The notes under the pieces are model-generated. The model was not told the origin of the DNA and ran no database searches. It saw only the letters and a program-made list of their open reading frames with translations. Of a stretch of DNA of 25,777 bases, positions 3,747 through 6,714 are shown in pieces. The position numbers were made by a program, and so were the translations under genes. Source of the stretch: a virus; the UHGV virus genome UHGV-1341054. One strand, given 5' to 3'. The first letter of the stretch is position 1. Every line of letters starts with the position of its first letter.

Positions 3747-3984
3747 AACCTCTCCTTTCCTACAGACGTAACTATTCCCCGGATACCCGGTAGTGTGTGT
3801 CTTGTTTCGTATTAGTATGAGATACAGCCTTAGCGACTATATGATGGGTTGAGATAGGGTTGTGGCGGTGGTGCCTCCACCTGCCAGGACAGCCACCCCT
3901 GGCGACGACACTTACCAGAACGATTTTGTTTATACAAAAAAGTTGAAGAAAATGGCTTCGTCACGTGCGCATAGCCGCAATTAC

Positions 3985-4095
3985 CACAACGGTAAGGATG
4001 TTCATTGCATCGACCGTCAAGGGCTGCTTTTCGATGATGACTCTACTTCGCAAGCGATAATGACGCGCTAATCAAACACCCTTACCTGTTATGTG
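3985..4095. repeat. Conserved-arm hairpin E1 (CACAACGGTAAGG ... CCTTACCTGTTATGTG)
   Basis: Left arm 3985-3997, right arm 4079-4095. Arms are reverse complements apart from one extra T in the right arm; about 81-nt loop. Confidence 0.4.
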
Positions 4096-4275
4096 CCGTG
4101 CTCTTCCGGCTGTCACACCGAATCGCCAGGATGGTGAGTCCTCGGTCCGACGATATGAACGGGGCTTGCACATTCCGGCTACCTGATGTGCCCATACAGT
4201 GTTAGTAAAAGGTACCTAACAGCTACACCAGACCGCTATCGACGCATGTGCCATACGCCGTGTTACAACCAAATA

Positions 4276-4351
4276 TGGTGGCCCCTACCGGACTTGAACC
4301 GATGACCGTGCGATTATGAGTCGCCAGCTCTAACCACTGAGCTAAGGGGCC
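4276..4351 (-). tRNA. tRNA with anticodon CAU, most like tRNA-Ile2 (lysidine type); Met not excluded
   Basis: Minus-strand 76 nt GGCCCCTTAGCTCAGTGGTTAGAGCTGGCGACTCATAATCGCACGGTCATCGGTTCAAGTCCGGTAGGGGCCACCA. 7-bp acceptor stem, D and T arms, anticodon loop CTCATAA, encoded CCA. Closely resembles E. coli ileX as recalled from memory. Confidence 0.85.
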
Positions 4352-4357
4352 GGATTA

Positions 4358-4462
4358 CTATTTACTAAGTGCTTCAATGGCGCTAACAATGCCGCCTACA
4401 ACTATGGCAACAATAATAATGAGAACAATTGGATACTTGTCAGCAAAATCCCAGAATCCCAT
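4358..4462 (-). CDS. Small hydrophobic peptide, 34 aa (MGFWDFADKYPIVLIIIVAIVVGGIVSAIEALSK)
   Basis: ATG at 4462..4460 preceded by SD GAAGGA (6 nt spacer). One predicted TM helix. Stop TAG at 4358-4360 lies 6 nt before the tRNA-Ile 5' end. Start overlaps the stop of the upstream small ORF (TGATG). Not in the ORF track (under 60 aa). Confidence 0.4.
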   Translation of the reverse strand: MGFWDFADKYPIVLIIIVAIVVGGIVSAIEALSK

Positions 4463-4665
4463 CACTGATCCTTCGAAGCTATTTTAAATATCGGCCATAC
4501 CAATGTTACGGCTACTGCCACCAACGCCCCGTCCGATAAAACCGACAGGATTGTGCTGGTGAAATCCACCAGCACGGACAGCTTGAGCACCATGCTCCCT
4601 ACTCTCCAATTGTTGTGGTTACCGGTACTGATCTCCGGCTTAGCGACCCCGGCTACTGACTGCAT
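4462..4665 (-). CDS. Small membrane protein, 67 aa from ATG 4665, or 43 aa from internal ATG 4593
   Basis: Hydrophobic C-terminal half (ALVAVAVTLVWPIF). Internal ATG at 4593 has SD GGAGAG; the 4665 start has a weak RBS. Coupled to the downstream 34-aa ORF. Confidence 0.3.
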   Translation of the reverse strand: MQSVAGVAKPEISTGNHNNWRVGSMVLKLSVLVDFTSTILSVLSDGALVAVAVTLVWPIFKIASKDQ

Positions 4666-4733
4666 TGCAGTGTGTGAACTCGCCTCGTGTGTCGCTGGGG
4701 CATTTCTTTCCGCGCATCAGTCTGCGCATCAAC

Positions 4734-4809
4734 CACAACGGAAAGAGCATTGGCTAACCAGGCTCGCCGACTCTTCACGATTATCGGCTCAATGCTCTTA
4801 CCTGTTGTG
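4734..4809. repeat. Conserved-arm hairpin E2 (CACAACGGAAAGAGCATTG ... CAATGCTCTTACCTGTTGTG)
   Basis: Left arm 4734-4752, right arm 4790-4809, about 19 bp with mismatches and one extra T in the right arm. The 37-nt loop holds an inner hairpin GCCGA...TCGGC. Confidence 0.4.
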
Positions 4810-4987
4810 CGCTCCGTTTCGTGGAGCTAACGGCGGGTGATCGGGCCGCACCAGACTGGACTTATTTCAGCGTTATGCTCATGCCAGAGAATCAAACTGT
4901 GATGGTCGGTGCTGAACTCCGACACAGGGTTGTAGCAAGCCCCGCAAAGCGCGCACTACTGTAGTTGCGGCACATCAGCCTGTGCAT

Positions 4988-5088
4988 TCACCACAATGTT
5001 GAGAACACTGGTTGTCACGCTGCAACGCAACATTTATTCGTAAATTGGGATATGACCCCGTTACGACAGTGTTCTCAACGTTGTAGTG
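4988..5088. repeat. Long hairpin E3, 14-bp perfect core stem with CACAA/TTGTG-type base
   Basis: TGTTGAGAACACTG (4997-5010) pairs with CAGTGTTCTCAACG (5067-5080); the flanking CACCACAA and TTGTAGTG extend the stem imperfectly; 56-nt loop. Confidence 0.35.
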
Positions 5089-5224
5089 CCGGTTACGGTT
5101 CCGGCCAGGTCTCTTCCTCAACGGGGTGTTCTCCATACGGGCTACCGTTTATTGGTCGTTCCTGCGGTTTATGTTGTGAAGCCAGATGCTTATCTTCTGG
5201 TTGCTTCTAAGAGCTGCACTTCAT

Positions 5225-5311
5225 CACAACGGTAAGGGTACTTCGTAGGGATTCGAACCCTCTGCCAAGCACGGCGATCTCCGACGTCGCAAAATACCCT
5301 TACCTGTTGTG
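5225..5311 (-). ncRNA. tRNA-like fragment (T-arm mimic) enclosed by conserved-arm hairpin E4, directly 3' of tRNA-Thr
   Basis: Arms CACAACGGTAAGGGTA (5225-5240) and TACCCTTACCTGTTGTG (5295-5311). Interior contains GGGTTCGAATCCC (T-stem-loop with TTCGAAT) but no matching D or anticodon arms and no CCA. Right arm ends 1 nt from the tRNA-Thr 3' end. Confidence 0.35.
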
Positions 5312-5312
5312 T

Positions 5313-5388
5313 TGGGGCCGATTAACGGACTCGAACCGCTGACATCCTGCTTACAAGGCAGGCGCTCTACCAACTGAGCTAAATCGGC
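5313..5388 (-). tRNA. tRNA-Thr (anticodon UGU)
   Basis: Minus-strand 76 nt GCCGATTTAGCTCAGTTGGTAGAGCGCCTGCCTTGTAAGCAGGATGTCAGCGGTTCGAGTCCGTTAATCGGCCCCA. Canonical cloverleaf, anticodon loop CTTGTAA, encoded CCA. Confidence 0.9.
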
Positions 5389-5390
5389 AC

Positions 5391-5465
5391 TGGCGATGGT
5401 GAGTGGATTCGAACCACCGACCAGTTGGTTAACAGCCAACTGCTCTACCGCTGAGCTACACCATC
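5391..5465 (-). tRNA. tRNA-Asn (anticodon GUU)
   Basis: Minus-strand 75 nt GATGGTGTAGCTCAGCGGTAGAGCAGTTGGCTGTTAACCAACTGGTCGGTGGTTCGAATCCACTCACCATCGCCA. Canonical cloverleaf, anticodon loop CTGTTAA, encoded CCA. Lies 2 nt upstream of tRNA-Thr. Confidence 0.9.
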
Positions 5466-5662
5466 AATTACCGGGTACGTCTCCGGCAAGGGCTTCCACC
5501 TTCGTATGCTTTTCGGCGCACCGCGCCCTGGCTGCAATTCGGTAACAGGGAGTGCATGACCCTGGCTTCCGGCGTAGTTAGCGCCTTCCGCATGACGGGA
5601 TATACCCGCTTAGGTTTGGAACTGTCCAAATGCTGTTAAGCACCGGCTGCTGCGCGAGTTGC

Positions 5663-5745
5663 CACAACAGATAAGGACGCTGCCAAGAAAGACCTGACCC
5701 TTCTCATTCATCTGGTTAATCACACCAGCGCCCTTACCTGTTATG
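5663..5745. repeat. Conserved-arm hairpin E5 (CACAACAGATAAGGACGC ... GCGCCCTTACCTGTTATG)
   Basis: Left arm 5663-5680, right arm 5728-5745, 15 of 18 complementary; lies upstream (in minus sense) of the tRNA-Asn/Thr pair. Confidence 0.4.
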
Positions 5746-5926
5746 ACTCCCCGTTCTTTAATACACAGACGGGAAAACTCTGCGGTCGATTTCTTGACGG
5801 GGGGCGACTCATACCCCGTGGCGTCAGGCTTCTTAGGCCGCTACCATCATCAGATCATCGTTTGCATTTACTTTAATGGTCGGTTTCTAAACCGCCGCAA
5901 AGTCGCTAACCATGACGAAAACACTG

Positions 5927-5951
5927 AAAAAAAGCCCACCCGGAGATGGGC
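5927..5951 (-). terminator. Candidate rho-independent terminator (minus strand)
   Basis: In minus sense: GCCCA-TCTCCGGG-TGGGC followed by TTTTTTT (A-run 5927-5933 on the plus strand). Confidence 0.45.
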
Positions 5952-5970
5952 AAATACGCTACATCTCACA

Positions 5971-6049
5971 CAAGAAAGAAGCCGACTGCCTGAGCTGGAT
6001 CCACTTTCAAATGCCCGCAGAAAGGGATCACAAGTCGGCTTCTTTCTTG
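5971..6049 (-). ncRNA. Large hairpin (17-bp perfect stem plus inner inverted repeat), candidate structured sRNA ending at the 5927-5951 terminator
   Basis: CAAGAAAGAAGCCGACT (5971-5987) pairs perfectly with AGTCGGCTTCTTTCTTG (6033-6049). Inner arms GATCCACTTTC and GAAAGGGATC. The overlapping ORFs on both strands look spurious. Confidence 0.3.
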
Positions 6050-6265
6050 ATGCGGCACTCTCTCCGCCCGTCACCGCTCTGTCTCGGTTGTCGCGTTTGC
6101 CACGCCAGCCGTAACGAGGTTTAAAGTCTTTGCACGTTTCCATCACTCGACTGCCGTCTGTGGCTGTTCGTTGCGGCGGGGGTGCCTCCCCCTGGGGATA
6201 TCCCCGGCCTTACCCCATTCTTTCAAGACACAATGCAAGGCCACATCCGCATAGGTGCATTACCG

Positions 6266-6331
6266 CAACATTAAGGAGACTCAGGGCAAAAGATACTCGC
6301 CACAAAAAATCCCTATGCCTCCTTAATGTTG
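6266..6331. repeat. Hairpin with 13-bp perfect stem (CAACATTAAGGAG ... CTCCTTAATGTTG)
   Basis: Perfect reverse-complement arms at 6266-6278 and 6319-6331 with a 40-nt loop; no adjacent T-run. Confidence 0.35.
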
Positions 6332-6552
6332 AGGATGTGCATTGATGATGACCCGAAGCAGCCTGGCCCACTAAGCACGTTTCTCTGCCAGATCATCATC
6401 ACTGCACGCCCTGAATGCATTGCCATCCGTGGCGTTGAGGTCGCTTGTTGTTTACTCCGCAAAATGCACTTTTGGAGAACACTTTATGGAGCATCATCAG
6501 TTCCTGCTGACCTGTTCTTGCCATTTGCACGGGCGCCTGGCTTACGCATTAT

Positions 6553-6579
6553 ATTTCTAACATTTTCATTTGTTAGAAG
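6553..6579. promoter_or_regulatory. Inverted pair of the recurring motif (ATTTCTAACA ... TGTTAGAAG)
   Basis: TTCTAACA and TGTTAGAA form an 8-bp inverted repeat with an 8-bp spacer. In minus sense the sequence reads ATGTTAGAAATATAATG, which contains a TATAAT -10-like hexamer. Confidence 0.35.
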
Positions 6580-6714
6580 TGCTGGTGGGTTAAGATTTGG
6601 CGAAAAAGAGTGACGCTCTACCTGCTGCAAGCCGTGTTGAGATATCACCCCACCAGCACGAAAAATTTTAGGACAACCACACAAAACAATCAATGTGTTA
6701 TTTTGTTCAACTCA

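Follow-up and report, generated by a model that had tools for sequence, protein, structure and literature searches.

Stalked hairpins with exchangeable cargoes in phage leaders: a probable RNA cassette family with a tRNA-like member beside the tRNA genes of P1-like phages

RNAs that resemble part of a tRNA are already known. In eukaryotes, mascRNA (RF01684) is excised from the long non-coding transcripts MALAT1 and MEN-beta; it is small, folds much like a cloverleaf, and combines a good T-arm with a reduced anticodon arm. The bacterial Y-RNA-like RNA YrlA (RF02553) reportedly consists of a long stem plus a tRNA-like domain; its long helix, formed by the 5' and 3' parts, leaves from the position of the anticodon stem, its apical part mimics the T- and D-arms of tRNA, and it binds Rsr/Ro60. 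YrlA-type RNAs have been reported from phages as well. The stalks recognized by RNase III, in the flanks of 16S and 23S rRNA and at T7 sites, are helices of at least 20 base pairs (bp) that flank structured RNA in a polycistronic transcript; the early and late RNase III sites of T7 are repeated along the transcript and have related sequences. Finally, the C4 antisense RNA of phages P1 and P7 is said to be a phage regulatory RNA processed by RNase P. Here we compare these systems with an element, E4, that occupies positions 5311..5225 on the minus strand of the virus genome UHGV-1341054 (hereafter the window, meaning the whole analysed stretch of 25,777 nucleotides (nt)), directly downstream of two tRNA genes. 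From the sequence letters, an original prediction had described E4 as a degenerate tRNA-like minihelix with a T-arm only, enclosed in a hairpin with conserved arms.

E4 is neither a tRNA nor a detectable tRNA pseudogene. We consider it very probable that it is a selected module, functioning at the RNA level, of a family of stalked hairpins that carry different apical sequences, here called cargoes. Its stalk is under structural selection; its cargo is under sequence conservation, exchangeable and mobile among stalks, and the spacing between stalk and tRNA is fixed. The fuller reading, in which E4 is one allele of a modular phage RNA cassette with a processed stalk and a cargo that mimics a tRNA surface, is in our judgement evenly balanced. 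While tRNA-like RNAs as a kind are known, the cassette family is previously undescribed: full-text searches on the ban operon, tciA, the D6 genome, lambdoid tRNA-like RNAs and the P1 transcriptome yielded no description of these stalked hairpins or of E4.

Read on the minus strand, on which all three tRNA genes of the window also lie (ARAGORN, Rfam), E4 has the sequence CACAACAGGUAAGGGUAUUUUGCGACGUCGGAGAUCGCCGUGCUUGGCAGAGGGUUCGAAUCCCUACGAAGUACCCUUACCGUUGUG. Both programs support the predicted placement, with a spacer of 2 nt between tRNA-Asn and tRNA-Thr and of 1 nt between the 3' end of tRNA-Thr and the E4 stalk. The arms CACAAC(A)GGUAAGGGUA and UACCCUUACCGUUGUG pair with a single bulged A at position 5305. 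The conserved 16-bp arms of the original prediction do pair, but the helix continues beyond them through UAUUUUG/CGAAGUA, with two G.U pairs, to reach 21 bp (6 + 15 bp around the bulge). It abuts the T-stem directly, where an acceptor stem would stack, and the first 7 nt of its 3' arm take the place of the acceptor 3' strand beside the T-arm, contrary to the earlier statement that an acceptor partner is missing. The hairpin has a predicted energy of -39.7 kcal/mol, compared with -23.1 +/- 3.1 for shuffled sequences (z = -5.3; none of 200 shuffles was as stable), and the fold is 5 kcal/mol better on the minus strand than on the opposite strand. The arm-plus-gap pattern found no match in 100 shuffles. 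Allowing up to one mismatch, GGTTCGAATCC occurs only in tRNA-Asn, tRNA-Thr and E4, with 0.41 matches expected by chance.

An alignment of 12 distinct E4-type elements (A1) was used to test the helices for covariation; a Klebsiella cargo (L004) and a cargo with a T-arm in locus L148 were omitted, as neither aligned convincingly to the E4 core. In the stalk, 13 of the 21 pairs have changes on both sides, and 90% of the cells are paired, compared with 29-55% when the partners are slid against each other. None of 500 shuffles in the stalk control reached any of the observed measures.

The cargo atop this stalk is 45 nt long. Its T stem-loop, which the original prediction had rightly called convincing, contains G53, U54, U55, C56, a purine at 57, A58 and C61, and is invariant among homologues; the first pair of the T-stem is a G.A. 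In an RNase P substrate, a T-loop/D-loop elbow caps a coaxial acceptor/T-stem stack of about 12 bp; E4 has the five positions of the T-stem and a helix that continues from them, this helix being extended and the 3' RCC paired. On the 5' side lies a candidate D-loop-like hairpin, the loop of which has 4 nt, GG and 3 nt ending in A, as in a tRNA D-loop; it is invariant in all 12 distinct homologues but for two loop positions. Its loop sequence UCGGA is complementary to UUCGA of the T-loop, and this complementarity is conserved. At the place of the anticodon arm there is a stub, the most variable part of the cargo, with a loop of 6-7 nt among homologues. One of its three pairs (G37-C/U49) is GC in seven sequences and GU in five, and the other two are kept in 11-12 of the 12 (RNAalifold). 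G5275 is common to the D-like hairpin and the stub, so the two helices are alternatives at that base. The claim that E4 has no D arm hence gives way to a candidate D-like hairpin, accompanied by the stub.

The cargo is far more conserved than its own stalk. In A1, about three quarters of the 45 cargo columns are invariant, the stems of the T-arm and the D-like hairpin never change, and changes are confined to the two D-like loop positions and the stub loop. Because most homologues had been found with anchors inside the cargo, a second scan was run in which the D-side sequence and the T-loop were the only fixed parts. It gave 11 new hairpin contexts, all with an identical T-stem and identical flanks although the T-stem had been left free; the remaining matches were unrelated sequences without a hairpin context.

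The cargo, with the core CGAYGYCGGAGAUCGCC, 6-7 variable nt and GG(C/U)AGAGGGUUCGAAUCCCUAC, was found in at least five array positions and three phage types. It follows tRNA-Thr in P1-like phages; it comes directly after a tR'-like terminator in loci L157, L190, L228 and L233; it follows a leader module, on a diverged stalk CCCACCAAUGAGAGC.../...GCUCUCAUUCGUGGG, in L128, L131, L132, L134 and L203; it sits in later hairpins with the base CAYAAC in L194, L184, L207 and L208; and it is also present in the Uetakevirus (podovirus) BUCT554. Of the seven non-P1 loci scanned for tRNA genes, six gave no call, the exception being L134 with a tRNA-Ala about 9 kb from the element. E4 is present with at least 95% identity in 464 of 5426 complete Escherichia coli genomes (about 8.6%), at 475 places of which 466 are plasmid-borne; the copies in these P1-like plasmids are 95-100% identical. 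A scan of genome contigs with the 3' half of E4 returned one species representative only, an Escherichia P1-like contig, and thus added no diversity.

These distributions bear on the suggestion that E4 is a neutral relic, a former tRNA gene from which an internal deletion removed the D and anticodon regions and which now decays without function in a hairpin repeat. The tRNA-derived look and the repeated conserved arms on which the original prediction based such a remnant are real, and deletion derivatives of neighbouring tRNAs do arise in these arrays: L043 (449-527) has a chimeric Asn/Thr tRNA, L063 (about 445-490) a 41-nt mini-tRNA in which the Asn acceptor and D region are joined to the Thr T-arm, and the window itself retains only 27 nt of a tRNA-Ser-like gene. 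In addition, tRNA models fail on E4, and P7-type phages do without its cargo. A relic is nevertheless hard to reconcile with a cargo that stays nearly unchanged across all these positions and phage types on a stalk of which 13 of the 21 pairs have diverged, that varies only at two D-loop positions and in the stub loop, that is near-identical in the 464 E. coli genomes and that lies in arrays without tRNA genes nearby. The last point also speaks against a decayed third tRNA gene in the Asn-Thr cluster, and we judge the relic explanation to be quite unlikely. A tRNA fragment of the attP type was rejected as well: E4 is present in only 464 of 5426 E. coli genomes and nearly always on plasmids, and is therefore not a copy of the 3' end of a core E. 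coli tRNA gene.

The tRNA model RF00005 gave no match on 5225-5311 at E<=10, in either a 2.8-kb or a 106-nt search, and ARAGORN called three tRNAs in the window, E4 not among them; the proposed pseudogene-style detection thus came back empty. The best Rfam matches to E4 were mascRNA (14.2 bits) and tRNA-Sec (14 bits), no other tRNA-like model touched it, and apart from the three tRNAs Rfam gave only chance-level matches (window at the gathering score; 3800-6600 and E4 at E<=10). E4 does not form the four arms of a cloverleaf, in which the anticodon stem has 5 bp and its loop 7 nt; only 27 nt separate its acceptor-like strand from the T-stem, compared with 41 in a tRNA, and it has no 7-bp acceptor stem with a free discriminator-CCA end, its helix running on to 21 bp. 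What it shares with tRNAs is the T stem-loop with all conserved T-loop bases, the stacked helix, the D-loop-like GG and a place directly beside true tRNAs in the same transcript; what it lacks is an anticodon arm, a U8/N9 linker and a 3' end.

The other systems resemble E4 in part. Like mascRNA, E4 is a small cloverleaf-like part of a longer non-coding transcript and has a good T-arm but little of an anticodon arm. It is not a member of RF01684, because it scores 14.2 bits against a gathering score of 42.5 (E = 1.2 in the 106-nt search); moreover, mascRNA is eukaryotic, whereas the acceptor-like helix of E4 is a 21-bp stalk with a conserved base and no free ends. With YrlA it has in common a long helix formed by the 5' and 3' parts and an apical mimic of the T- and D-arms, but the long helix of E4 extends the acceptor position. 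The YrlA model did not match E4, and its sole match (19.5 bits, E = 0.92) was on the true tRNAs (5363-5423). To our knowledge P1-like phages do not carry rsr; it is absent from the P1 and D6 annotations near the locus, with no TROVE screen made of the window's open reading frames outside 3800-6600. As in an RNase III stalk, the E4 helix exceeds 20 bp, is mostly Watson-Crick and flanks a product, and it is supported by covariation; the differences are another sequence family and an enclosed product of 45-80 nt that can be swapped. C4 comes from the same phage group and is likewise a small structured RNA cut from a precursor by the host's tRNA-processing machinery, as is only proposed for E4, but it is encoded at immI, has a different fold and acts by antisense pairing; the Rfam C4 model gave no match in the whole window (gathering threshold) or in 3800-6600 (E<=10). 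The M3 RNA of phage phi80, which is cleaved by RNase P, was also considered and rejected as the identity of E4: in the 501 nt read from the phi80 late leader, visual inspection showed neither E4 nor a family hairpin.

The slot that E4 occupies can hold other cargoes. In phages P7 and Ro157c2YLVW the stalk 1 nt after tRNA-Thr and the flank downstream of it are the same as in the window, but the stalk encloses an unrelated cargo of 43 nt (CAUUCUCCCUUAUGGGGCUUGGCUUAAAUGCAUCGAGUG), and in other P1-like contigs the slot after tRNA-Thr contains a third cargo with GUAGAG-UUCGACU-CUCUAC. The cargoes seen 1 nt after tRNA-Thr are E4, P7-type or class-E, and the 1-nt spacer is unchanged in the relatives with other cargoes. 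Directly after tRNA-Asn, a P1-like phage of Klebsiella carries a related cargo whose T-loop is degenerate. None of the relatives compared has an intact tRNA in the E4 slot, the finding that would have pointed to a simple decayed gene; the extra tRNA-Tyr of Ro157c2YLVW lies between Asn and Thr, outside the slot. The set of tRNAs ahead of the slot also varies, being Asn-Thr, Asn-Tyr-Thr, Arg-Tyr-Thr or Arg-Thr (L009, L008, L031, L028), and in L096 (array 527-660) tRNA-Thr has an insertion of about 60 nt in its anticodon region.

A constant stalk at a constant distance from tRNA-Thr with a varying cargo would also be expected if the hairpins were only punctuation in the leader, helping tRNA 3' processing, blocking RNase E or exonucleases or excluding Rho, with the cargo incidental. 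The leader is dense with hairpins, each family hairpin is flanked by conserved small hairpins, and no conserved open reading frame runs across E4, all of which suits such a role. This explanation accounts neither for an E4 cargo that is more conserved than its own stalk nor for the conservation of every cargo class across many phages, and we consider it rather improbable. A short open reading frame inside the cargo, starting from GUG after GGAG, was dismissed since P1 has GAG there.

E4 is one of six minus-strand hairpins in 3985-6341 with the common base CAYAAC-(A)-GGUAAGRG ... CYCUUWCC-GUUGYG (Table 1). All six are far more stable than shuffled sequences (z-scores -3.5 to -8.2), and none matched an Rfam model at E<=10. 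Many family hairpins have GCUCCACGAAACGGAGC upstream and GGUGAAUGCGCAGGCUGAUGCGC downstream; the one at 4734..4809 has the small hairpin GCUCCACGAAACGGAGC before it and GGUUGAUGCGCAGACUGAUGCGC after it. A scan of viral contigs with the conserved base found at least 120 loci, with 84 distinct hairpins among the matches listed. The 135 arrays collected with the leader module as anchor, independently of the stalk, contain 79 distinct hairpins and at least 15 cargo classes among the matches listed, all in the sense orientation. T-loop-like hairpins also occur in other cargo classes (window 4989-5088 (-); P1, L002 (-) ~2651; L008 and L009; L148): one of them, GGGKUCAUAUCCC, departs from the canonical T-loop at position 58; another, GUAGAG-UUCGACU-CUCUAC, is at the 5' side of its cargo; and in L148 GAGGG-UUCGAGU-CCCGC abuts the 3' arm. 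L162 has a long-arm tRNA-like sequence that ARAGORN does not call.

Table 1. Features of the E4 element, the tRNA genes and the leader hairpins in the window.
Feature	Position	Strand	Basis or remark
tRNA-Asn (GUU), first tRNA of the leader	5391..5465	-	ARAGORN; Rfam RF00005, 73.6 bits
tRNA-Thr (UGU), CCA encoded	5313..5388	-	ARAGORN; Rfam, 72.6 bits
tRNA with CAU anticodon	4351..4276	-	ARAGORN call = Met
E4 stalk, 5' arm CACAAC-A-GGUAAGGGUAUUUUG	5290..5311	-	fold; covariation on the 12-sequence alignment A1
E4 stalk, 3' arm CGAAGUACCCUUACCGUUGUG	5225..5245	-	fold; covariation
E4 T stem-loop GAGGG-UUCGAAU-CCCUA	5246..5262	-	sequence; identical in every homologue
E4 D-loop-like hairpin CGA-CGUCGGAGA-UCG (CGA-CGUC GG AGA-UCG)	5275..5289	-	candidate only
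E4 stub arm GCC/GGC, 3 bp, 6-nt loop, at anticodon-arm place	5264..5275	-	RNAalifold consensus
Family hairpin, diverged stalk CUCAACAUUAAGGAGGC.../GUCUCCUUAAUGUUGCG	6264..6333	-	
Family hairpin, cargo starts GCGCUGGUGUGAUUAACCAG	5663..5745	-	commonest cargo class in arrays
Family hairpin, Y-shaped, contains GGGGUCAUAUCCC	4989..5088	-	94-nt class
Family hairpin, cargo starts CAUUGAGCCGAUAAUCGUGAAGAG	4734..4809	-	
Family hairpin, 109 nt, downstream of tRNA-Ile(CAU)	3985..4093	-	
Leader module GUUAGCGACUUUGCGG...AAAUGCAAACGAUGA	5855..5910	-	marks array start in P1-like and lambdoid phages
Intrinsic-terminator-like hairpin with U run, upstream of the array	5934..5951	-	counterpart of the end of the P1 'dicF-like region'

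Terminal inverted repeats around variable interiors, in many copies and in unrelated phage types, could also indicate an element that works as DNA. It might be a miniature inverted-repeat transposable element, a recombination site (attC-like or of another type) or a cruciform through which phages exchange modules. Some E4-type hairpins are hybrids with the 5' arm of one stalk type and the 3' arm of another (L130 2940-3040; L149 ~5260-5350), which is direct evidence of recombination or deletion ending inside the cargo or stalk; together with the replacement of cargoes at a fixed slot, they show that copies recombine internally or with one another. There is a loose resemblance between the outer bases CAYAAC...GUUGYG and the R''/R' boxes of attC sites, the consensus of which is RYYYAAC...GTTRRRY, but ACACAAC and GTTGTGA each miss this consensus at two positions. 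No integrase was seen in the annotated P1 and D6 neighbourhoods, no integron integrase or transposase was seen beside the arrays read, and the flanks read show no direct repeats that would represent target-site duplications. In all 31 copies that have a single-nucleotide bulge, the bulged base is an A and belongs to the 5' arm, never to the 3' arm, so that all bulged copies have the same orientation relative to transcription, and the sense strand has 104 G.U-type pairs compared with 39 A.C-type pairs, under a detection that treats both alike; a DNA hairpin would not favour G.U. This G.U excess and the bulge bias favour a role of the transcribed strand as RNA over a DNA cruciform or a transposable element able to insert in both orientations, and we regard a DNA-level element as more unlikely still than a tRNA relic.

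If E4 is an RNA cassette, we envisage the following. The cassette would consist of a stalk of about 21 bp with a conserved base, a bulged A in the 5' arm and interchangeable apical cargoes, and would be transcribed together with tRNAs in a long untranslated leader, that of the ban operon in P1-like phages and the Q-dependent late leader in lambdoids. An RNase III-type enzyme may cut the stalk, as it does the stalks that flank 16S and 23S rRNA, a possibility that the anatomy suggests and to which we give somewhat less than even weight. Cleavage would open the 3' side of tRNA-Thr, 1 nt upstream of E4, for exonucleolytic trimming to the CCA, and a small stable RNA, the cargo, would be set free. 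In the case of E4 this would be a tRNA-derived mini-cloverleaf whose T stem-loop stacks on the stalk in an acceptor-like geometry, with the D-like loop pairing with the T-loop to form an elbow. With only a 3-bp stub for an anticodon arm, it could not decode. It could instead display the acceptor, T-arm and elbow surface of a tRNA, although mimicry of this surface as the function of the cargo seems doubtful to us. Having such a surface without an anticodon, its target would be a factor that reads tRNA shape; candidate partners are RNase P and the CCA-adding enzyme, whose substrates E4 might mimic according to the original prediction, TruB/TrmA or a host defence protein directed at tRNAs. The cargo may thus titrate or divert a tRNA-directed defence nuclease or a tRNA-maturation enzyme during phage development, and the stalk might serve to express and cut out small structured RNAs and, through recombination inside it, to pass them from phage to phage. 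That P1-like phage-plasmids, lambdoid prophages and Uetakevirus share stalk-and-cargo cassettes of which E4 is the elbow/acceptor mimic diverting a host factor is, taken as a whole, a speculative proposal that we think is probably not correct in full.

Several observations weigh against an RNA cassette with a processed stalk and a tRNA-mimicking cargo. The T-stem, the D-like stem (CGA/UCG) and the stub (CC/GG) show no variation in A1, so covariation provides no support for the cloverleaf. The RNAalifold consensus recovers the stalk, the T-arm and the 3-bp stub, and favours a different 2-bp helix instead of the D-like arm. The minimum free energy structure of E4 disrupts the T-arm, which has a probability of 0.25 at a cost of only 1.1 kcal/mol; the structure chosen contains the pairing between the D-like loop and the T-loop, and in L128 and L133 the T-arm fold is itself that of minimum free energy. 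E4 has no free 3' end or conserved CCA, and the nucleotides after the acceptor-like 7 bp, in the place of tRNA positions 73-76, are paired and vary among homologues (CCCU, CUCU, UCCU). The cargo is dispensable at its slot, as P7 and Ro157c2YLVW carry another. Its near-identity could in part reflect recent spread by recombination, not selection. Finally, the roles suggested for RNase III and RNase P are drawn from anatomy.

The window is from a P1/D6-like phage and is 92.5% identical to D6 and 91% identical to P1 in the ban leader. In P1, the order on one strand is the P1ban promoter with a C1 operator, the 'dicF-like region', tRNA-Asn, tRNA-Thr, tciA/B/C, tRNA-Ile(CAU) and ban, which places E4 in the untranslated leader of the ban operon. 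The consensus of the C1 operator, with as many as 3 mismatches allowed, had no match in the window. The terminator-like hairpin at 5951..5934 has the same position as tR' in lambdoid leaders, so that the tRNAs and ban are downstream of a terminator; it is preceded by a perfect 17-bp inverted repeat (5971-5987 / 6033-6049), with which it makes up the counterpart of the 'dicF-like region' of P1. The leader module occurs in at least 120 viral contigs and overlaps a weak match to permuted tmRNA (24 bits, E = 0.03, under the gathering score).

P1 contains E4 with 96.9% identity over a 131-nt query that includes the E4 flanks. P1 records annotate a gene there on the opposite strand, plp ('putative lipoprotein'; L002 2853-3230), which runs antisense across E4, across three family hairpins in all and across 30 nt of tRNA-Thr. 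It is hardly credible that E4 encodes the C-terminal part of this protein. The homologous open reading frame of the window (4965..5210 (+)) stops before E4, the sequence is a different one in P7-type phages, neither Plp nor Upl has a match among the NCBIfam families, and PGAP annotates no feature on E4 in the 40 listed of 473 matching E. coli records. Since it is truncated in the window and belongs to no protein family, plp is probably not a gene, and it would have to be read antisense to three structured hairpins and a tRNA.

Farther along the leader, the tRNA at 4276-4351 (-), Met (CAU) according to ARAGORN, is the counterpart of P1 trnI, annotated as tRNA-Ile2 (CAU, ileX-like). The tRNA-Ser(UGA)-like gene of which the window retains a part is 87 nt long, is intact in D6 (L001 2860..2774) and is called by ARAGORN in several arrays; its first 27 nt remain at 4581-4607 (-), fused to the middle of tciB, which indicates that tciA, one family hairpin and the 5' end of tciB were deleted in the window. 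An ATG within this remnant now opens a 43-amino-acid TciB variant (open reading frame 4462-4665 (-)). Downstream of tRNA-Ile(CAU), a conserved stretch of about 160 nt at 4095-4250 (-) has the sequence GGCACAUGYGUCG..GGUAGCCGGAAUGUGCAAG..GGUGUGACA..GGAAGAG and is also present in the unrelated podovirus BUCT554 (L005 1345-1500), there upstream of an E4-type hairpin. No Rfam model matches this stretch, which has the look of a further structured RNA.

In lambdoid prophages, family arrays fill the late leader between Q and the holin gene. The array of L130, for instance, lies between a Q-like antiterminator gene (phrog_753, 1e-68), with its promoter and terminator, and genes for holin, lysozyme and Rz, so that it occupies the leader of a lambdoid late operon. 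Exactly here, Asn/Leu or Asn/Thr tRNAs are found in P22-like phages, among them L and Sf6 (PMC8022706), and a 2026 preprint describes the Pas small RNAs (sRNAs), which are RNAs other than E4, in the same neighbourhood with TerB, Q and holin (10.64898/2026.05.13.724894); the RNAs of this neighbourhood treated in a paper on anti-sRNAs are likewise others. The modular non-coding arrays of lambdoid late operons thus have a homologue in the ban leader of P1-like phages.

Few genetic systems have been studied as closely as P1 and the lambdoid phages, yet E4 is without annotation in all 40 E. coli RefSeq records listed of the 473 that match, and in P1 it lies under the doubtful antisense gene plp. 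If the stalked hairpins are processed, the ban and late-operon leaders would be arrays that produce sRNAs, not spacers, and E4 and its relatives would form a new class among the phage-encoded RNAs of pathogenic E. coli, beside the Pas, AgvB and StxS sRNAs encoded nearby. A tRNA mimic that does not decode, located beside phage tRNAs, would bear on the question of why phages carry tRNAs and on antiphage defence that targets tRNAs.

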